From Planctomycetota bacterium (GTDB lineage: Bacteria; Planctomycetota; Phycisphaerae; SM23-33), in the NCBI GenBank assembly GCA_009908915.1, contig JAAAOJ010000062.1, forward strand, positions 5,594-69,593: a stretch of 64,000 nt of DNA. Reading direction: 5' to 3'. Under the pieces are notes generated by a model. The model saw only the letters and a program-made list of their open reading frames with translations. It was not told the DNA's origin and did no database searches. Positions 986 to 32,035 of the stretch are shown here, piece after piece. Position 1 is the stretch's first letter; the number at the start of each line of letters is the position of its first letter. Position numbers and translations under genes: made by a program.

Positions 986-2284
986 TCACAGCGCGCACAG
1001 CACGGTGCAGGCCAGCAGGCACAGCACGACGCGCAGCGTGCGGGGCAGCTTTCGACGTCGCGGCCAGGTGCCGAGCATCAGCAATCCCATTCCGACGCCC
1101 GCCATGGCCGTTTCACTGCGCAGGCCGGTGTCGGCAGCGGACATCTGTATGTAGTTGTCAATGTGCCGCCATTGGACGGGCACAAGCACGACATCGTGAT
1201 CCATGGTCGTGGGCGGCATGACGGTGCGGAGGCGCGTCAAATAGGCGGGCTTGGTCTCATCTGGCAGGGCGGCGGTGATTGTGTCGAGCATTTCGCGGAA
1301 CGTCTCCGCGTCGAAATGTCCGAAGCCACCTTCGTTGACGGGAAGCGCTGACTCGGTGATAAAGATGCGGCCGTCGCGGCTGTTGGTGGCTGTCTTGAAG
1401 TAGTATTCGTACGTCGTTCCGCTTGGCGTATTGTTGGCACGCTTGAACTCGTCATAGAACTTGCGTGCCTGCGCGTCCCTGTAAATGAGTTGGTCGACCG
1501 ACAGGTTCGGCCAGTTGGCGACGGCGTATCGGAAGGGAGCGAGGACATAGAGGAGGATTTCGTTTTCGAGGCCGGCCGAGATCTGCGAGATCACCAGCGG
1601 GAAGGTGAGCGTCTCGCTGTCATAGGTATAGGCGATGGGGTGGGGCACGAGTTTGCCGTCATCGTCTTTGTCAGCATCACTGAGGTCCTTCCGCAGGCGC
1701 ATGGCCAGCCAGTACCAGCCTTTCTCGACGTATCGGCCGAGGACGCGCTCGGCACCGATCGGCAGGGCGTAGCCGTTTTCGTTGAGCCATGTCGTGAGTT
1801 CGTCGCCGCCGGTGCTGGAGAGCACGACGAACTCGTAAATCCCGGCCGTGCCTTGCTCATGAACGGTGACGGCATTCCGCCACGTGCCCAGGCCCTTGCG
1901 TCGCATTGCCATGGAATTGCATCCGCACCCGAAGGGCCCCTTGGAGGATTCGACGGTGTAGAACGTCGGCGCGGTGGCCTGATCGAGGGCGGCGAAGAGT
2001 TCGCCGTCGGCCTTCTTGATGTCGCGGGGTTTGGCGGGGATGGGCACGACCCAGGCCATCTCAGGCGAGGGCGTTTCAAAGTGTGTGCGAAGGACCATGC
2101 GAACGGTCCTGCCGTCGGCGACCATCAGGCACTCCTGGCGGGGTGAGGTCACGCTGGACTTTTGGTTATCGTGGGCAACGCTGCCGATGGGCACGAACGC
2201 GCAGCCGTCGGCGAGGGCGGGCGTCGAGGCGAAAATGGCAAGACAAACAAGAGCGGCTGCAGTAGCGCGGGCGGTGCGGGTCAT
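986..2284 (-). CDS. secreted hypothetical protein (possibly DUF2330-like) with a C-terminal hydrophobic anchor
   Basis: Start chosen at MTRTARATAAALVCLAIFASTPALA (signal peptide; CAT at 2282-2284). C-terminus is GVGMGLLMLGTWPRRRK: a hydrophobic stretch followed by a basic tail. No catalytic motif recognised. Confidence 0.5.
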   Translation of the reverse strand: MTRTARATAAALVCLAIFASTPALADGCAFVPIGSVAHDNQKSSVTSPRQECLMVADGRTVRMVLRTHFETPSPEMAWVVPIPAKPRDIKKADGELFAALDQATAPTFYTVESSKGPFGCGCNSMAMRRKGLGTWRNAVTVHEQGTAGIYEFVVLSSTGGDELTTWLNENGYALPIGAERVLGRYVEKGWYWLAMRLRKDLSDADKDDDGKLVPHPIAYTYDSETLTFPLVISQISAGLENEILLYVLAPFRYAVANWPNLSVDQLIYRDAQARKFYDEFKRANNTPSGTTYEYYFKTATNSRDGRIFITESALPVNEGGFGHFDAETFREMLDTITAALPDETKPAYLTRLRTVMPPTTMDHDVVLVPVQWRHIDNYIQMSAADTGLRSETAMAGVGMGLLMLGTWPRRRKLPRTLRVVLCLLACTVLCAL

Positions 2285-2392
2285 GTCGCGTCCTTTCTGT
2301 CTCAGTACCCGTATGCGCGGCGGGCCGGACGTGCGGGCATCCCAGTTGCCCTGTCCCGACCCGCCGCACTGTCCGGCGTTGGCCAATGGGTG

Positions 2393-4045
2393 TCAATCGC
2401 GGGCGGCCGGGCCCGGCTTGTCGGCCAGCTTGCGGGCCTTGGCCACCAGCGCGACAAACTCCTTGCGATAGCCGTGGTGGTCCTTGCCGCGGGTGGCGCC
2501 GACGAGTTTCTCGACGGCTGCCAGCGTGTACGTGCCCGCATGGTCGCTCTCCCGCAGCAGCATACCGAAGGCCGCCACGCCCGCCGCGAAACGCATGTCC
2601 GTGCTGGCCTTGTCCAGCGATCGGCCGTCGTCACGGACGCGATGCGTCATCAGCGTCGAGGTTTCGCCCTCAGGCTGCTTGTATCGCAGCTTGAGCGTCA
2701 GCAGTTCGCCGCTGCCGGCCGCCGGGACGAGCGTCGGCTCGCTCTGGTAGCGGAGGTCGTCGACCTCGCCGCCGGGAATGTCCTGCCCGGCGGGCACCAC
2801 CTCGTACAGGGCCGTGACGGTATGGCCCGCTCCGATCTCACCGGCGTCCTTCGTGTCGTCGTTGAAATCCTCATCGTTCAGCAGCCGATTCTCATACCCG
2901 ATCAGTCGATAGCCGGCCACCTCAGCGGGATTGAATTCCACCTGGATCTTCACGTCCTTGGCGATGGTCACCAGCGTGGAGTTGATCTGATCGACCAGAA
3001 CCTTTTTCGCCTCCCGCTCGGAATCCACGTAGCCGTAATTGCCGTTGCCGCGATTGGATATCTCCTCCATCATCGCGTCTTTGTAGTTGCCCATGCCGAA
3101 GCCCAGCACCGTCAGGTACACGCCGTTACGCGTCTGCTTGCGGACCAGGCCGACGAGCCCGCTGCGGTCGGTCGTGCCGACGTTGAAGTCGCCGTCGGTG
3201 CAGAGGATCACCCGGTTGATGCCGCCCGTGATGTAGTTCTCCCGGGCCGTCTGGTAGGCCAGGTTGATCCCCGCGGCCCCGTTGGTCGATCCGCCGGCTT
3301 GCAGGCGGTCCAGGGCGGAGAGAATCTCGCGGCGATTGTCGCAGGTCGTGCTGTCCAGCACCCGGCCTGCCGCCCCGGCATAGACGCAGATGGCGATGCG
3401 GTCGCGCCCGTTGAGCGTCTTGGTGAGCATCGACATGGCCTTCTTGACCAGCCCCAGCTTGTTGCGGCTGTCCATGCTTCCCGAGACGTCCAGGAGGAAT
3501 ACAAGGTTGCACGGCGGTCGCTGCTCGAAGCTGACGTCCTTGCCCTTGATGCCAATCTTCACGAGGCGATGCTGCGGCGCCCACAGGCAACCCGCGACCT
3601 CGGCGTGCGCGGCGAAGGGGTGTTTGCTGTCGGCCGACGGCGGGGCGTAGTCATAGTCGAAGTAGTTCACGAGTTCCTCGATGCGAACGGCGCCGGCAGG
3701 CGGCAATTGGTCGCTGTTCAGGAAGCGGCGGACATTGGCATAGCTGGCGGTGTCGACGTCGATGCTGAACGTACTCAGCGGATGGTCCGCGACACGCTTG
3801 AAGCCGTTCTCCTCGATGTGGTCGTACGTCTCCGTGTTGTGCCCTTCGATGGGTGGCTCGGGCTCGCGGGGCATCGCCTGCACAAGCGGCGCGGGCGGAG
3901 CCGAGCGGGCGAGCGACCGATCCGCCGCGAGGAAGCGATACTCCCCGGTCCGCTGCGTGGGCTCCGACGCACAGCCGAGGAAGGCGGTCGCGATGATGCC
4001 GGTCAGGGCGGCCAGGCAGCAGGTGAAAGTGAGGATGCGTTTCAT
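2393..4045 (-). CDS. von Willebrand factor type A (VWA) domain lipoprotein, YfbK/DUF3520-like
   Basis: Lipoprotein signal MKRILTFTCCLAALTGIIATAFLGCAS with start CAT at 4043-4045. MIDAS-like DVSGSM motif, and CTDGDFNVG within the VWA fold. The C-terminal region is typical of YfbK-like proteins. Confidence 0.8.
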   Translation of the reverse strand: MKRILTFTCCLAALTGIIATAFLGCASEPTQRTGEYRFLAADRSLARSAPPAPLVQAMPREPEPPIEGHNTETYDHIEENGFKRVADHPLSTFSIDVDTASYANVRRFLNSDQLPPAGAVRIEELVNYFDYDYAPPSADSKHPFAAHAEVAGCLWAPQHRLVKIGIKGKDVSFEQRPPCNLVFLLDVSGSMDSRNKLGLVKKAMSMLTKTLNGRDRIAICVYAGAAGRVLDSTTCDNRREILSALDRLQAGGSTNGAAGINLAYQTARENYITGGINRVILCTDGDFNVGTTDRSGLVGLVRKQTRNGVYLTVLGFGMGNYKDAMMEEISNRGNGNYGYVDSEREAKKVLVDQINSTLVTIAKDVKIQVEFNPAEVAGYRLIGYENRLLNDEDFNDDTKDAGEIGAGHTVTALYEVVPAGQDIPGGEVDDLRYQSEPTLVPAAGSGELLTLKLRYKQPEGETSTLMTHRVRDDGRSLDKASTDMRFAAGVAAFGMLLRESDHAGTYTLAAVEKLVGATRGKDHHGYRKEFVALVAKARKLADKPGPAARD

Positions 4046-4798: not shown

Positions 4799-5776
4799 AT
4801 GACTGAGACTGAGAACAACCAGCGACAACCCGACCGTCTCGAAACGTTGTTGGCCGTGTGGGGCGCCGAGACGGCCGCCAAAGAGCAGGAGCTGCCGCCG
4901 CCGCCGCGGGAGGTCCGCATCCGCCAGTTGCCGTGGATGTGGCGTTGTGCCGTGCCGGCTGCGGCTGTGCTGCTAATCGGACTCCTGGCGGTCTGGGGGC
5001 CGCTGCGCGGGCTGCGACGAGGCGACGCCCAGCACGCGGCCAAGGCGCCGTCGAAGACCGACTTGGCCGAGGTTGCCACGCTCCAGAGCGAACTGGACGA
5101 TCTGCGCACCAAGCATGCCGAGGAGGTCGCGGGCCTGCGAGGCGAACTGGTGAAGGTCCGTAAGCGTCGAGAAGCGGTGGAACTCGAGGCGAAGGAGTCG
5201 GCCCGACGCGTGGCGGAACTGACCGAGGCCAATGAGGACTATCGCCGCGATATCGCCAAGGTCGGTGAGGCTACGCGGCGACTGCACCGGTTCGAGCAGG
5301 AGGTCGGCGCCCTGCAGGGCAAGCTGGCGAAACTGCAGATTCAACTCGGCGAGCAGAGCCAGCAGGCCGAGGTCGCCACCAACGCGTTGAAGCAGCTTCG
5401 CGAAAGCCGGCAGACGTTATTGGCGCAGTTGGGTGAGTGGTACTTTGCGGCGTCGGCGCCGGGCGAGCGCGGTGTGACGGCTGCCCGCATCGCGGCCCGC
5501 AATAACCAGTTGCTCCGGCGGCTGGAGGTGCTGCGAGCCGACGGCGTGACCGTCGATGCTGAGGAGACCGTCGCGGCGGCCGAGACGTTGCTGCTGCGGC
5601 TGGCGATGCTGCCCGAAGGCGAGCCCGAGGCCACCGGCGCATGGATCAGCGCCGTTGAGCGAAGCGGCGTGATCGCAACCATCGACGAGGCGTTGCTGGC
5701 CGACCCGCCGGCTGGACTGGGCCGATGGCTGCTGGAAGCACGGATGATCCTTTCGGAGGGCGGCCATGTCAGCTAG
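4799..5776 (+). CDS. putative anti-sigma factor / membrane coiled-coil protein
   Basis: Lies immediately downstream of the ECF sigma gene. Has an AGGTGA ribosome-binding site, a single TM helix (AVPAAAVLLIGLLAVWGPL) and long coiled-coil heptads (LQSELDDLRTKHAEEVAGLRGELVKVRKRREAVELEAKE). Confidence 0.5.
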   Translation: MTETENNQRQPDRLETLLAVWGAETAAKEQELPPPPREVRIRQLPWMWRCAVPAAAVLLIGLLAVWGPLRGLRRGDAQHAAKAPSKTDLAEVATLQSELDDLRTKHAEEVAGLRGELVKVRKRREAVELEAKESARRVAELTEANEDYRRDIAKVGEATRRLHRFEQEVGALQGKLAKLQIQLGEQSQQAEVATNALKQLRESRQTLLAQLGEWYFAASAPGERGVTAARIAARNNQLLRRLEVLRADGVTVDAEETVAAAETLLLRLAMLPEGEPEATGAWISAVERSGVIATIDEALLADPPAGLGRWLLEARMILSEGGHVS

Positions 5777-9930: not shown

Positions 9931-10028
9931 GGTCGTCTCTGCCTTTCCTGTCAGTACGGAACGGACGATAAATCATGCGGACTGCCGCAACGAAGGTCAA
10001 CCAGATAATGGCCGCTACGCCGGCGGGG

Positions 10029-11210
10029 CTACATCTGGCGGTTGACCAGCCCGGTCTTGGCCTGGCTGATGCCCTTCATCATCATCCGCAGTTCTTCGGC
10101 GTTGGGGGCTACGCTGTAGGCCGCCTTCGGGTCGATCAGGTCTTTTTCGATCAGGTCGAACAGGCTTCGCGAGAAGCACTGCATGCCGTCGCCTTCGCCG
10201 GAGCGGATCACGTCGGCGAGGTCGGCGTCTCGACCGTCCTCGAGCAGCCCGCGGACGGTGGCCGTGCTGAGGAGGATTTCGACGGCTGGCACGCGGTCGA
10301 TGCCGTCGGCCACGCTGGGCAGGAGCTTCTGGCAGATGATGGCCTGAAGGTTGTACGCGAAGGACTGCATGATGTTGTCCCGCGATTCCGGCGGGAACAT
10401 GTCGAGGATACGGCTGACGGTCTGGGGAGCCGTCGAGGCATGCACCGTGCCGAAGACCAGGTGACCGGTCTCGGAGGCCTGCAGGGCGGCCTCAAAGGTA
10501 TCGCGGTCGCGCATCTCACCGATGAGCACGATGTCGGGGTCCTCACGCAGCAGGCTGCGCAGAGCGTCCTGGAAGCTCTGGACGTCGATTCCGATTTCGC
10601 GCTGGCTGATCAAGGCCTTCTTGTCCTCGTAGAGGTACTCGATGGGGTCCTCGATGGTCACGATGTGGCAGCGTCGCTGGGTGTTGATGTACTCGATCAT
10701 CGAGGCGATGGTCGTACTCTTGCCGCAGCCGGTCGGGCCCGCCAGCAGGACCAGTCCGCCGCTGGCCTGCGTGACCTTCTCCAGTACAGGCGGCAAGTGC
10801 AGCTGCTCGAAGTTCGGGATGTTGCGCGTGACGCGCCGTACAGCGATGCTCGGCTCGCCGCGCTGCAGGAAGATGTTGATGCGGAAGCGGTCGCCGCCGG
10901 GTTCTTCGTGGGCGATGTCGACCTGGCCGTGGTGGACGAAGTAGCTGCGCTGTCCGCTGGTCAGCAGACTGTCGGCCATCTCCTCGACCTGCTGGCGGGG
11001 CAGAGGCTCTTCCTTCACCGGCCGCATCTGCGACTTGACCCGCACGTGCGTGACCGAGTCGGTCTTGATGTGAAGGTCGGAGGCCCCGACCTTGGCCATC
11101 AGCTCGAAGTAGGTCTGCAGCTTGGTGGGGATCTCGCGTTCGTTCCCCTGATGGCCAGCGTCGAGTGGCGGTGCGGCGTCTCTGGCGGGTGGGGGGGTTG
11201 GCTCGCTCAA
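10029..11210 (-). CDS. pilT: type IV pilus twitching-motility ATPase PilT
   Basis: Intact Walker A ([10 protein letters not shown]), Asp box/Walker B ([14 protein letters not shown]), His box ([10 protein letters not shown]) and an N-terminal GASDLHIK motif. Apparent TTG start; its start region overlaps the hisF stop by 4 nt. Confidence 0.85.
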
Positions 11211-13241: not shown

Positions 13242-13317
13242 GAGCGCTCGTCGAGCGGGTGGGCGCGGACCTCAGGGGATCAAATGACGAGGCAGGGCAT
13301 CGCGAGCGAGCGTTTCT

Positions 13318-14007
13318 TTAGATGCAACCCTTAAGTCTCATCGCGTGATGGGCGGTCACGGCGATCTCGCTGAGGCTGAAGACGCTGGCGTCGAAGGTCA
13401 GATTAAACGCCGGCTTGCGGGGATACTTGCGTTCGTAGATTTTCCGCAGGTACTCGCGTCTCTCGGTTTCCTCGTTGATATGGATTTTGGCCTGCGTTTC
13501 GCTGAGGCCTTCGCGGAAGGCGATCTGCTTGACCCGCCAGTCCACGGGTGCTTCGAGACGAACGCTGATGCCGTTGGGAATGTCCGCCGTCGCGGCGGCC
13601 GAGCCCTGCCCGACAAGAATCGCGTGACCGTCGATGGCCAGTTCACGGATGATGGCCGTCATACGGTTGCGGATCTCCATGCCGCTCGGCACGCGCTCCT
13701 TCTGGCCGGAGATCGTGCGGAAGAAGTTCTTCAGCAGGCCGGGCTTGGCGCGGCGTTCGCGCTCGATGACCTCCAAGGCCACACCCGTTTCGCCGGCAAG
13801 GTTATCGAGGATCTCCTTGTGGTAGATGTGCCATGTCTTGCCTTCATCGGCATCGTCGTTGAGAAGGTCCAGCAGTAGCAGGCCCAGCGAGAATCCACCG
13901 CAGCCGTACTGGCGCGAGATCGCCACAAACGGTCCCGCCTCGGAGAGATCCTCGTCGCAGGCCGTTCGAGGCTGCCGCATCTGTCTTGCCAGTGAATTCT
14001 CTGTCAT
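13318..14007 (-). CDS. cytidylate kinase-like family protein
   Basis: P-loop-like ISRQYGCGG and overall resemblance to the cytidylate kinase-like family (~230 aa). Co-directional with, and immediately downstream of, the PIN/TRAM gene. Confidence 0.6.
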   Translation of the reverse strand: MTENSLARQMRQPRTACDEDLSEAGPFVAISRQYGCGGFSLGLLLLDLLNDDADEGKTWHIYHKEILDNLAGETGVALEVIERERRAKPGLLKNFFRTISGQKERVPSGMEIRNRMTAIIRELAIDGHAILVGQGSAAATADIPNGISVRLEAPVDWRVKQIAFREGLSETQAKIHINEETERREYLRKIYERKYPRKPAFNLTFDASVFSLSEIAVTAHHAMRLKGCI

Positions 14008-27420: not shown

Positions 27421-27535
27421 TGCTCTGCTCTCTGCTCGTCGGCAAAGAGAACGAAACGGTTGCTCAGACCGCCTCGCAGGGGAAAGTTCCGGCAAGTGCT
27501 CAGTTTACCGGTGTGCTCAAAGAGGCTTGTTGCGG
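27420..27535. repeat. ~115-bp direct repeat, copy 1
   Basis: Near-identical to 27942-28054. The two copies differ by clustered substitutions and a 2-nt indel, so the repeat is not coding-conserved. Confidence 0.85.
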
Positions 27536-27941: not shown

Positions 27942-28054
27942 TGCTCTGCTCTCTGCTCGTCGGCAAAGAGAACGAAACGGTTGCTCAGACCGCTTCGGGG
28001 GAGAGTTCCGGCAAGTGCTCAGTTTACCGGTGTGCTCAAAGAGGTTCGTTGTGG
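27942..28054. repeat. ~115-bp direct repeat, copy 2
   Basis: See copy 1. The copies are spaced 522 bp apart within a 966-bp convergent intergenic region. Confidence 0.85.
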
Positions 28055-28303: not shown

Positions 28304-29746
28304 TTAAGCGGCCTTGCGGGCCTTGCGGCGGCGGGCGAGTATGCCCAGCCCCCCCATTCCGAGGACCGCGAGGATACCGGGCTCGGGGACTTCCGCCGTC
28401 GGGGCAATGTAGATGCGGTTCTCGGGGAACCAGGTCCGCTCGCCCGTGATGGGATCTTCGTAGTAGACCTGCCCGTGGGCCAGCGTCTGCGTGTTGTCTA
28501 CGCCGAGGATAATCGGGGTTGCATCAACCTGGGCGTTGTTGCCGGGCTCAAAGCCCCAGTCCGTGCCGAAGTCCCAGACAACGAGCATTTCGATGTCATC
28601 GAGGGTCGTTTCGGCGAGGTCGATGCGGATGACCTGCTGATCGACCCAGAAGGGGACGTCGCCGCCGCTCGTGCCGGCCTGACCGGCCAGGCCGCCGATG
28701 ACGCCGCCGTCGCTCGACCGCTCGGTGTACTCGCTGCGGGTCTGGAAGGCGTCCTGGTACTCGTAGCCGAGGACCGCCAGGATCTCGGCGGCCGTGCGGT
28801 CGCTCAGCCCGTTGACCCAGCCTGCCAGCGTCTGTGGGTCGACTTCTTCGGACTCCATCGAGGCAATGATCGTATCAATCTCCGCGTCGGTGAGGTTCTC
28901 CGGCAGGTTGGCCGTGTACCAGTCCTTGCGTTCCTGGTTGGCAGCGTAGGTGTACTGCTTCAGGGCGTCGTCGAACTTCACCGGGTAACGCAGGCCTGTC
29001 GTCGGGTCAGCCGCCAGGTGGCTGATGTCGTTGGCCTGTGTGATCTGCGGGTTCGAGACGTTCTCGCCAAAGCCGTCGATCGTACCGGTGTACTGGCCGT
29101 TGTGGACCAGGATATCCATATCGACCCGGCCGGCCGGATCGCCGCTGCCGCCATTGCCGGGCTGGACAGCATTACTGGTCCAGCCGAGAGCCCAGCCGTT
29201 CGTGCCGGCGTACTTCTCGACGTAGTAGTCGCTGCGGGCCTGTTCATAGCCCGAGTCGCCGAAACTGGTGTCCCAGTACGTGGACGTGTTGTTGTCCGAC
29301 TGGCTGTAGGTCATGTAGAACGACAGCGTGTTCTCGTACTGCTTCGGCCCCCAACTGACAACGTCGGTGCCGGGATAGGTCTTGTCGGCGTAGTTCCCGG
29401 GCGAAACAGGGATATCGCCGTCGCCATCCTCGCCGCCGCCGAAGACCGTATCGTCCATCTCGTGCCACGCGTTCATCTGCGTTCCGCTGGAAACGGGCGT
29501 CCACCAGTTCTCAAAGGTAGCGACCCTCGTATCGCCGGGGTTGAGGATACCTTCGGTGGTGCTGCTACCTTCAGCGAACATATACCACGTCTTGACGGCA
29601 TCGCTCCGCAAGGGGCGATAGCCGTGTTCGGTGACCATGTAGTTCGGGTCCGGCTCGACGACGGTTCCGGCCAGGCCGGTTGTCGCCGTGAGCATGACCA
29701 GGAGCAATCCCAGGCCGATCAGATTGTTGAGCATTGTACATTTCAT
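28304..29746 (-). CDS. PEP-CTERM sorting-domain protein (secreted, exosortase substrate)
   Basis: N-terminal signal peptide and a C-terminal VPEPGILAVLGMGGLGILARRRKARKAA, matching the PEP + TM helix + Arg-rich layout of a PEP-CTERM domain. Asp/Gly/Thr-rich body. Start at MKCTML. Confidence 0.8.
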   Translation of the reverse strand: MKCTMLNNLIGLGLLLVMLTATTGLAGTVVEPDPNYMVTEHGYRPLRSDAVKTWYMFAEGSSTTEGILNPGDTRVATFENWWTPVSSGTQMNAWHEMDDTVFGGGEDGDGDIPVSPGNYADKTYPGTDVVSWGPKQYENTLSFYMTYSQSDNNTSTYWDTSFGDSGYEQARSDYYVEKYAGTNGWALGWTSNAVQPGNGGSGDPAGRVDMDILVHNGQYTGTIDGFGENVSNPQITQANDISHLAADPTTGLRYPVKFDDALKQYTYAANQERKDWYTANLPENLTDAEIDTIIASMESEEVDPQTLAGWVNGLSDRTAAEILAVLGYEYQDAFQTRSEYTERSSDGGVIGGLAGQAGTSGGDVPFWVDQQVIRIDLAETTLDDIEMLVVWDFGTDWGFEPGNNAQVDATPIILGVDNTQTLAHGQVYYEDPITGERTWFPENRIYIAPTAEVPEPGILAVLGMGGLGILARRRKARKAA

Positions 29747-30909
29747 GATGAGCAATCTCCCTTCACCTCACTCGGCGAGCAAGCCGTGTGGGCAAAACGT
29801 GTACCCAGAGCAGCAAGCGATGCTTTGGCGTGTGATGAGCGTTCATCTTCCGGTGGTCAGACATATCCCAGAGATCGTCTGGCTGACCGGACAACACGCC
29901 ACGTGCTGCTGCTCGAACGTCCCGGCCGGCGAGTAGGCTGATTGAGCGTCAGCCGCGGCGCCCGCAGGCCAGGTCAGGGTTCTGCAAACGTGCAGGTATT
30001 CACTTGTGTGACTCAGCAAACAAGGCTAAGTAACGTTCTAAAAGGCGGTTACACGTTTCTCCTTTGAGCAAGAGAGCCTTTCGTCCTTAGCATTGTCGGT
30101 GAGCCCGGGAGGAGCTCGCTATTGTATAGCACACTTCCTTTCTTCCGGCAGGGTGGTGCAAACTGGGAAGCAGTAAGGCGGGATTGAGCGATCCCGTTTG
30201 CCTGACCAAGCCGTTGCTGCATCCTCCAAAGGCGCGCAACGTAAGCACGCTTAGTCAGTTACCGCATATCCGAGCAGAGCATCGAGCCGGATCTTTGGCC
30301 CCGTGGGGCCGGTCCCGTCCAGATCTTCGGTGAGCGCCGAAGCCTGAACCTTACAAGCACAAACTCTCTCTGACCTCTCTCGTCGTCAAACCAAGGCGAA
30401 GAGCGTTTTTGCTTTTCAACCGTTGTTACCCTAGAACTACAGCAGGGCGGTCAGCGGTTTCGTCGGGACGTCTTACGGTCCAATCGAATGTGAAAAGCCA
30501 ATTTGCCGTTCGTGACATCTGCCTGGCAGGCCCCAGCCTCATAGCCGGTTGAGCACAAACCCATCATGCAGGTGAACAGTCACGAACTGCGGAGAGAAAG
30601 GGAGCCATGGTCCAGAGCCATCGAGCAGAGCTGTTCGGTTTCACTGAGCACATGAGCAATATCTTTCTCTGAGCACTCATCAGTCTATACCGAATCGACA
30701 CCGGCGTCAAGGCAAAAAACAGCATCCAGAGGAAATTTTCAACAGGGCGGACTGGCAGGGCGGCAACCACATTATCAGCCCGTTTGGAAATTGGTCGCAT
30801 CCCCGACCCGACGTCGCGGCACTCTCAACATGTATGGCCCTGCTACAGCACGATGATTGCGCTACCCAACGTCCGAAGGTGTTGAGCCAGCCAGGTGGCC
30901 ACGTATCCT

Positions 30910-31029
30910 GACGCCTCCCTCAGACATCCGAGGACGTGCCGATCAGCACCGTTTTCGTGACATAACGTCTTTGTTTGCGTTGCAAAATCGTTCTGGTTTT
31001 CCGCCCGCCTGACTTTTGAGGGAGGCGTC
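30910..31029. mobile_element. MITE-like 120-bp element with 13-bp perfect terminal inverted repeats and a 6-bp TSD
   Basis: Terminal inverted repeats GACGCCTCCCTCA ... TGAGGGAGGCGTC. Flanked on both sides by TATCCT (30904-30909 and 31030-31035). No ORF. Confidence 0.6.
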
Positions 31030-31063
31030 TATCCTGGTCAATTGCCGCGGCATTTTTCTCTTT

Positions 31064-31187
31064 GACGGCTCCCTCAATACTCCGGGGTAGTACCCCTCAG
31101 CTCCATTGTCGTGACGTAACGTCTTCGTTTTCGCTTGCATCACAGGAACAGTTTGCTTTTCCGGCCATCTGACTTTCGCGGGAGGCT
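31064..31187. repeat. decayed second copy of the MITE-like element
   Basis: Left end GACGGCTCCCTCA, shared internal CGTGACGTAACGTCT core, degenerate right end (..CGCGGGAGGCT). No target-site duplication. Confidence 0.45.
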
Positions 31188-31342
31188 TTTTGGGTTTTTT
31201 GGGGTTTTGGACCCTCCCTAGTCCCAGAATTCCAATAAGTCCGATAATATATATTATGTGGCGCTAGGGGGTTTATTGCAGCGAACGCTGTCGGGAATTG
31301 CTCGAAATGGCCGTGTAGCGGTCACATTCTCACAGATGTCGG

Positions 31343-31384
31343 CACAAAAACTGGCCTCCGAAGGACCGCTGCTCTCCGGAGGCC
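31343..31384 (-). terminator. minus-strand intrinsic terminator downstream of the small-protein operon
   Basis: On the minus strand: GGCCTCCG-gagagcagcggtcctt-CGGAGGCC followed by AGTTTTTG. Confidence 0.5.
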
Positions 31385-31413
31385 GTGTTTCTGCCTTAAC
31401 GTTTCGTCCCGGC

Positions 31414-31704
31414 TCAGCGGGCAAAGATTCGCCCAAGGTCAACGCGGTCGTCGACAACCTGGACTGTATTGCGCGACGGGTCTGTCGCGTACACGAGCAG
31501 TTTCTGCTTCGGGATGTCGATGACGTACAGCAGCGATGACGAGTCTGAAATCTGGCCCGTGGCCATAATGTAGTCGCCGGTCATGGTGCGACTGGTTGTG
31601 GCCGCCTGGGCGGACTGGCTCTTCCAGGAGCCGACGACAAGGACGCCGAGGACAACGGCTGTGACCATCAGCATTGCGATCAGTGTATTCTGGTTCGTCT
31701 TCAT
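31414..31704 (-). CDS. small secreted protein, paralog A (~96 aa)
   Basis: Signal peptide and an AGGTGA ribosome-binding site. Clear paralog of the next gene: DYIMATGQISDSSSLLYVIDIPKQKLLVYATD aligns with DYVAAVGEISSDYDALFITDLASRRMVALKWD. Confidence 0.55.
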   Translation of the reverse strand: MKTNQNTLIAMLMVTAVVLGVLVVGSWKSQSAQAATTSRTMTGDYIMATGQISDSSSLLYVIDIPKQKLLVYATDPSRNTVQVVDDRVDLGRIFAR

Positions 31705-31756
31705 GGTTTCACCTTACGGGTTGAGTGTCGGGGGTTAATCTCGCGAGGGTCGCCGT

Positions 31757-32035
31757 TCAGCGCCCGCCGAAGTCGCTTTCGAGGTCGTGCGGACCGAAGG
31801 CGACCATTCGTTGGGCGTTCTTGTCCCATTTGAGGGCGACCATGCGTCGACTGGCGAGGTCGGTGATGAACAGTGCGTCGTAGTCGCTGGAGATCTCTCC
31901 CACGGCGGCGACGTAGTCCGTGCTTTTGAAGCTCTGGGCCTGTGCGGGCGCCATGTTCAGGTGGATCAGGCCGGCCAGCAGAGCGCCGTTGAGGACGATC
32001 AGGCCGACGATCATCATGCGTTTCATCTCGGTCAT
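31757..32035 (-). CDS. small secreted protein, paralog B (~92 aa)
   Basis: Start at MTEMKRMM, with a GGGAGA ribosome-binding site 7 nt upstream. Signal peptide. Paralog of 31414-31704. Confidence 0.55.
   Translation of the reverse strand: MTEMKRMMIVGLIVLNGALLAGLIHLNMAPAQAQSFKSTDYVAAVGEISSDYDALFITDLASRRMVALKWDKNAQRMVAFGPHDLESDFGGR

Follow-up and report, generated by a model that had tools for sequence, protein, structure and literature searches.

A probable MITE family that shares its termini with an IS1182-like insertion sequence at a Planctomycetota locus

Bacterial MITEs are in general non-coding, multi-copy elements of 70-300 bp with terminal inverted repeats and target-site duplications, and they are mobilised in trans by a transposase able to recognise those repeats (PMC3733652). 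REP sequences are stem-loops of 20-40 bp with an unpaired GTAG or CGTC tag, the CGTC-tagged kind occurring in many phyla (PMC3733652). In the IS1182 family of insertion sequences (IS), IS1272 inserts in place of target stem-loops without leaving a duplication (PMC5678879), and the repeats made by ISPse1 are 4 bp long (PMC3281130).

The 120-bp element that we describe here has the structure by which MITEs are recognised and can be likened to Correia/NEMIS of Neisseria, RUP of Streptococcus pneumoniae, Nezha of cyanobacteria and ERIC/YPAL. As far as tested its sequence is unrelated to any of these, from which it also differs in its short terminal repeats (13-16 bp), its 6-bp duplication, its IS1182-like partner and its hosts, which are Planctomycetota and a metagenome-assembled genome (MAG) labelled as Verrucomicrobia. 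Like REP/REPIN sequences it is short, hairpin-forming, intergenic and repeated, but those are much shorter, have no target-site duplication and are tied to a tyrosine transposase, none of which applies to the 120-bp element. The partner IS resembles the IS1182 family, to which IS1272 and ISPse1 belong, in its DUF772 and DDE_Tnp_1_6 domains, its single open reading frame (ORF) and its terminal inverted repeats, whereas the 6-bp duplications made by both MITE and partner differ from the absent duplication of IS1272 and the 4-bp repeats of ISPse1. The terminal 13-mer, GACGCCTCCCTCA, occurs in none of the indexed papers, and the few indexed papers that treat MITEs, insertion sequences and Planctomycetes together, in the portions available, do not appear to describe the element. 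It is an ordinary MITE of a well-known kind, belonging to a family for which the indexed papers yielded no description.

The window, by which we mean the whole 64-kb stretch of DNA that was analysed, is identical to contig JAGXKU010000177 of GCA_018335055.1. It contains two copies of the element, both in 1.6 kb of gene-free sequence that separates two minus-strand genes:

28304-29755, minus strand: gene for a PEP-CTERM protein
31414-31704, minus strand: gene for a 96-aa protein

The first and better preserved copy has the following parts, the two flanking hexamers having been read directly and the terminal repeats found by an inverted-repeat search:

30904-30909, no strand: left TATCCT of the 6-bp target-site duplication of copy 1
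30910-31029, plus strand: MITE copy 1 (subfamily 1), 120 bp, both ends intact
30910-30922, plus strand: left terminal inverted repeat of copy 1, GACGCCTCCCTCA
31017-31029, minus strand: right terminal inverted repeat of copy 1, reading TGAGGGAGGCGTC on the plus strand
31030-31035, no strand: right TATCCT of the 6-bp target-site duplication of copy 1

The original prediction had placed here a 120-bp unit whose 13-bp terminal inverted repeats are perfect, with TATCCT on both sides and no coding capacity, and all three properties were recovered. The two arms, of 13 nt each, are 100% complementary and lie 94 nt apart; TATCCT is present at both flanks; and stop codons occur in five of the six reading frames, with no gene-like ORF. 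With the element taken out, the empty site would read CCACGTATCCTGGTCAATTG, with a single TATCCT.

On the window alone, chance is one possible account: a fortuitous 13-bp inverted repeat beside a fortuitous 6-bp flank, together with a local duplication in a fast-evolving intergenic stretch, might give the same pattern. By our own arithmetic, 64 kb should contain ~0.2 perfect 13-bp inverted repeats with a spacing of at most 200 bp; the 13-mer is not enriched in the window when up to two mismatches are allowed (3 found against 3.1 expected). The adjoining direct repeat, matching at six of six positions, lowers the chance expectation by a factor of ~1/4096 (again our own arithmetic). The window by itself leaves chance open and gives moderate statistical support only. 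An nhmmer profile built from both copies found no third copy in the 64-kb window. Chance is refuted by copies outside the window that have the same ends and different flanks: full-length copies 90-97% identical to one another lie at unrelated loci in other assemblies, each between its own hexamers, and the same termini bound 14 full-length IS copies. After these comparisons we give coincidence next to no weight.

Two routes led to the external copies. A scan for the core pattern across one genome per species had a single match, at locus L011, and did not return the window itself. Protein databases also served to find copies that had been mis-called as ORFs: translations of copy 1 in six frames retrieved the proteins P0005 and P0006, and an exhaustive search among representatives with the one open frame, on the minus strand, retrieved P0128 and P0130. 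Locus L012 is the contig of P0005 and locus L045 that of P0130. The copies outside the window are as follows:

L011, 3576-3695: full 120-bp copy at 94% identity to copy 1, the 13-bp ends unchanged and CGGAAA on both sides
L012, 10429-10548: copy L012B, with AAAATG on both sides
L012, 13347-13466: copy L012A, a full copy adjoining a half copy
L045, 4610-4740: copy L045b, with flanks CGCATT/CACATT
L045, 5099-5218: copy L045a, inside a (TGGATTTT)n array

The loci examined hold seven full copies and one half copy in total, with unit lengths of 120-131 bp, and four of the full copies and the half copy lie on two contigs of metagenome sample 3300039107. Two more copies, P0006 and P0128, are visible solely as translated ORFs. 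At the loci examined the element is multi-copy with different 6-bp flanks, which speaks against the single-copy element with chance flanks that would have undone the original reading. Target-site duplications agree at six of six positions for TATCCT, CGGAAA and AAAATG and at five of six for CGCATT/CACATT; the duplication is absent or ambiguous in copy 2, in L012A, which adjoins the half copy, and in L045a, which sits in a microsatellite. The 13-bp terminal repeats are perfect in copy 1, L011 and L012A, with one mismatch in L012B and L045a and two in L045b. A metagenome search that combined terminal repeat and core had no match, because the core varies between copies, and neither a scan of viral contigs nor a plasmid blastn search with the element returned one.

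The L011 locus belongs to the Verrucomicrobia-labelled MAG, but coverage of its contig is very low (0.67x), which makes the binning uncertain. About 340 bp from its MITE copy lies an IS4-like element (~1900-3237) with a 401-aa transposase and the ends CACTACTGTCCGG and CCGGACAGTAGTG; we rejected it as the partner, its ends (CACTACTGTCCGG) being unrelated. On L012, the ‘protein’ P0005 (10001-10765) is a mis-called repeat region made of tandem coding-like repeats of ~38 aa and a MITE copy, and a REP-like hairpin, CCGTGGGCGCAAGCCCACGG, occurs at 10001-10765 and ~13300-13350, beside both MITE copies and in opposite orientation. P0006 (NBB96190.1) is annotated as a helix-turn-helix (HTH) protein, and its C-terminus is replaced by the element, read through in frame. 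Its accession lies 65 numbers from NBB96125.1, the 96-aa protein of the window, and both are labelled as a Planctomycetes MAG, so the P0006 copy is probably the third one in the source genome. Adjacent accessions thus place it, in all likelihood, in the same genome as the window, which would give that MAG the two window copies and P0006.

The second window unit begins 34 bp past the first:

31064-31187, plus strand: MITE copy 2 (subfamily 2), with a 6-nt internal insertion and a degraded right terminus
31188-31230, no strand: T/G-rich simple repeat (T5G3 T6G4 T4GG...) adjoining the right end of copy 2

The left end of this unit reads GACGGCTCCCTCA, which aligns with AAAAGCCTCCCGC, the reverse complement of the right arm, in a way that marks that arm as degraded, and its flanks hold no recognisable target-site duplication. 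Both units contain the core CGTGAC(A/G)TAACGTCT, which has two exact matches in the window against 0.17 expected there at up to two mismatches. Copies 1 and 2 are 72% identical in a gapped alignment, with ungapped blocks at 76% and 70%. In an alignment of seven copies (copy 1, copy 2, L011, L012A, L012B, L045a and L045b), copy 1 and the L011, L012A and L012B copies are 90-97% identical among themselves, L012A matching copy 1 at 91% and L012B at 92%. Copy 2 matches L045a at 84% and copy 1 at 72%, and the same C-to-G change marks the left ends (GACGGCTCCCTCA) of copy 2 and of L045a. Because L045a, and not copy 1, is the nearer of the two to copy 2, the two window units represent independent insertions. 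The earlier description of a ‘decayed tandem copy’ holds in part: a second unit with the common core does lie 34 bp downstream at 31064-31187, with a degraded right end and no duplication, but the identities (84% to L045a, 72% to copy 1) speak against the word tandem. As far as sequence comparison can tell, copy 2 is an older, separate insertion from a sister subfamily and not a local tandem duplicate.

T/G-rich simple repeats adjoin the subfamily-2 copies, at 31188-31230 in the window and at 5030-5098 and 5219-5250 on L045, where the (TGGATTTT)n array stands on both sides of L045a. The repeat may be either a target preference or a slippage-prone tail of the element. Clustering is seen at several loci: the window copies are 34 bp apart, a full and a half copy abut on L012 (13347-13520), a second element end follows 6 bp after the IS on L044 (2192-2199) and two copies lie ~360 bp apart on L045 (4610-5218). 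The pattern hints at local hopping or at a preference for landing beside existing copies.

The predicted fold of copy 1 raises another account, touched on in the original prediction as possible expression as a small RNA. On this account copies 1 and 2 would be paralogous small-RNA genes in tandem, or else a structured RNA that regulates in cis, produced by local duplication and kept by selection on a terminal helix. On both strands copy 1 has a much better fold than shuffled sequence (z -5.2 and -3.6), T-runs follow copy 2, and the interior core is well conserved between the copies. Any long inverted repeat, however, folds better than its shuffles, and copy 2 has no such advantage over shuffled sequence (z +0.61 and -0.6). 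Rfam gave no match across the whole window at gathering thresholds and nothing relevant in 29900-31800 at E values up to 10, and a consensus scan found no promoter-like or terminator-like site inside either unit. Across the seven copies, none of 35 predicted pairs was kept through a change on both sides (covariation term +0.41); in the terminal stem all changes are one-sided and six cells are broken, as would follow if the two arms were each maintained on their own for binding by a protein. The greater similarity of copy 2 to a copy from another metagenome than to copy 1 argues against the local duplication, and an RNA gene would leave unexplained the unrelated loci with their differing 6-bp duplications and the ends shared with an IS. 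Expression as a structured small RNA consequently finds no support in Rfam or in compensatory change, and we consider this account very improbable, the mobile-element reading being strongly preferred.

That reading called for an autonomous partner, and one was found. A scan of metagenome contigs for the left end (GACGCCTCCCTCAGANNTCC) returned 18 loci, 12 of which are chance matches in GC-rich coding sequence. The reference copy is:

L028, 173-2057: IS of 1885 bp with the same perfect 13-bp terminal repeats and one 575-aa ORF

The first 23 nt at the left end of this IS are identical to those of the MITE, the right end differs at one of 18 positions, and the last 17 nt of the MITE recur at the left end of the L034 IS. 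More broadly, the left terminal repeat of copy 1 is identical to the termini of ~1.88-kb IS copies in L028 and L034-L044. Thirteen further full copies measure 1879-1885 bp and mostly end in GACGCCTCCCTCA(G/A)AA, the right terminus being degraded in L031 and L032, with a single ORF of 567-575 aa between the terminal repeats. L016, L019 and L021 have one further element end in common, with three different flanks, and a 55-64% identical transposase is encoded by L018 and L020.

The L028 protein matches DUF772, DDE_Tnp_1 and DDE_Tnp_1_6, all above Pfam gathering scores. Its best NCBIfam match is the IS1182 family (NF033551; E 1e-51, model positions 34-486 of 488), the next-best family reaching E 2e-13, and its NF033551 score of 176.3 bits lies below the curated cut-off of 270. 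A length of ~1.88 kb falls within the range of the IS1182 family. On these profile matches the partner is best described as IS1182-like, a distant branch. More than 4,263 homologues of the transposase were found, mostly on ~2-kb contigs, in keeping with a repeat that breaks metagenome assemblies. Flanks of single full-length IS contigs are inconsistent as duplications, which we attribute to chimeric assembly of multi-copy elements in metagenomes. Pairing of left and right flanks across contigs recovered the hexamers AAGAGT and TGTCTT, against 0.06 matches expected by chance, so the full-length IS also makes 6-bp duplications.

Only the ends are common to the two kinds of element. The MITE interior (~70 nt) has no similarity to any of seven sampled IS sequences, and an origin of the MITE by internal deletion is left unsupported on that ground. 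Palindrome targeting in the manner of IS1272 was rejected: of four reconstructed target sites, that of L011 (z -2.6) alone has a notable hairpin character.

The same termini bear on a further possibility, that the units are REP/REPIN palindromes mobilised by an IS200/IS605-like tyrosine transposase (RAYT), with the GACG...CGTC ends serving as the CGTC tag. The element does begin with GACG and end with CGTC, and it can fold as a long hairpin. Against this, the unit is 120 bp long with 13-bp terminal repeats, four copies have 6-bp duplications, and the same ends bound an IS with a DDE transposase and not a tyrosine-transposase gene. REP/REPIN movement is not known to leave a target-site duplication. 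We regard a REP origin as exceedingly unlikely.

We conclude with high confidence that 30910-31029 is a non-autonomous MITE that probably borrows the transposase of an IS1182-like IS. The claim of a non-autonomous mobile element family is upheld by multiple copies, by varied 6-bp duplications and by a partner IS with the same termini, and it is the combination of the same ends with differing 6-bp duplications at unrelated loci that carries the MITE reading beyond what the window offers. The MITE would keep just the 13-25 bp at each end that are recognised by the DDE transposase, which would be encoded elsewhere by the ~1.88-kb IS1182-like IS with the same ends and would mobilise the MITE in trans. 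The transposase would excise or copy the MITE and join it to target cuts staggered by 6 bp, and gap repair after insertion would then produce the flanking TATCCT duplication. Copy 2 would be an earlier insertion whose right end has since decayed, leaving it probably immobile; copy 1, with its ends intact, could move. No copy of the partner IS turned up in the 64-kb window, and we infer its presence elsewhere in this particular genome.

A bolder version of the MITE reading holds that the family is more than passive, combining a functional interior, landing by older copies and movement across phyla; we think this rather unlikely, though less so than the RNA or REP accounts. The interior (CGTGACRTAACGTC) is unlike any sampled IS, and copies are 72-97% identical overall across the subfamilies. 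Together with the adjacent T-rich block, CGTGACRTAACGTC could be a subterminal site for a host factor or the transposase, or else a hairpin RNA that is expressed. Landing of new copies seems to favour places beside or inside older ones, and the family may move between phyla (Planctomycetota and the Verrucomicrobia-labelled MAG), at 94% identity.

What the two copies do where they now lie can be judged from the sites around them:

30682-30710, minus strand: sigma-70-like promoter, TTGACG-17-TAGACT, ~200 bp from copy 1 and pointing away from it, towards the PEP-CTERM gene
31353-31384, minus strand: terminator-like hairpin after the 96-aa gene, found as an inverted repeat and followed by a T-run on the minus strand

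Conservation with relatives starts exactly at TAGACT, the -10 of this promoter, and locus L005 has TTGACA-17-TAGACT at the matching place. The hairpin, which has a 10-nt loop and was not flagged by the consensus terminator scan, would act as the terminator of the 96-aa gene. Both copies lie ~200-480 bp upstream of the conserved promoter (30710-30682) and beyond the hairpin, and this position between terminator-like hairpin and promoter makes them probably untranscribed and neutral. Both are therefore most likely neutral passengers in an untranscribed gap. An insertion outside the neighbouring transcription units points to no regulatory consequence, and nothing indicates an effect on neighbouring genes.

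Two records, NBB96125.1 and MBS3821183.1, correspond to the 96-aa protein; both come from Planctomycetes/Phycisphaerae MAGs. Homologues of this protein led to loci L002-L010. Relatives in which it is 70-77% identical keep the gene order and the long spacer, with no trace of the element at the syntenic locus. They offer no clean empty site, the ~500 bp around the insertion point being too diverged to align, and the contig of the closest relative, 95% identical, ends before that point.

Three other features of the region were observed in passing. Upstream of the PEP-CTERM gene lies a long conserved non-coding leader (29756-30710, minus strand), ~650 nt of which (30042-30687) show ~70% identity to relatives in which the 96-aa protein itself reaches only 70%. 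Its mismatches have no 3-base periodicity, its indels are not multiples of three, and repeated GCTC/TGAGCAC motifs abound in it, without a match in Rfam; the stretch may represent a large structured 5' leader or a non-coding RNA, and could prove of greater interest than the MITE. At 31239-31267 an AT-rich motif of 29 nt (GTCCGATAATATATATTATG...) is ~90% conserved in L003 and L005-L009 within surroundings that are not conserved; relatives carry its inverted partner, ATTATCGGACC, 67-72 nt away, and the window has no such partner. Finally, a secondary BLAST hit revealed a ~110-bp direct repeat (27421-27532 and 27942-28051), ~95% identical and ~520 bp apart, downstream of an FGGY kinase gene.

As a piece of biology the element is mechanistically unsurprising selfish DNA and adds no new mechanism. 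For annotation, it explains a repeat that gene callers translate, P0005, P0006, P0128 and P0130 all containing the translated element, and it accounts for the breaking of metagenome assemblies into ~2-kb contigs by the partner IS. The terminus GACGCCTCCCTCA(G/A)AA with a 6-bp duplication is a usable diagnostic for a very abundant, poorly named IS1182-like group of Planctomycetota and marine metagenomes.
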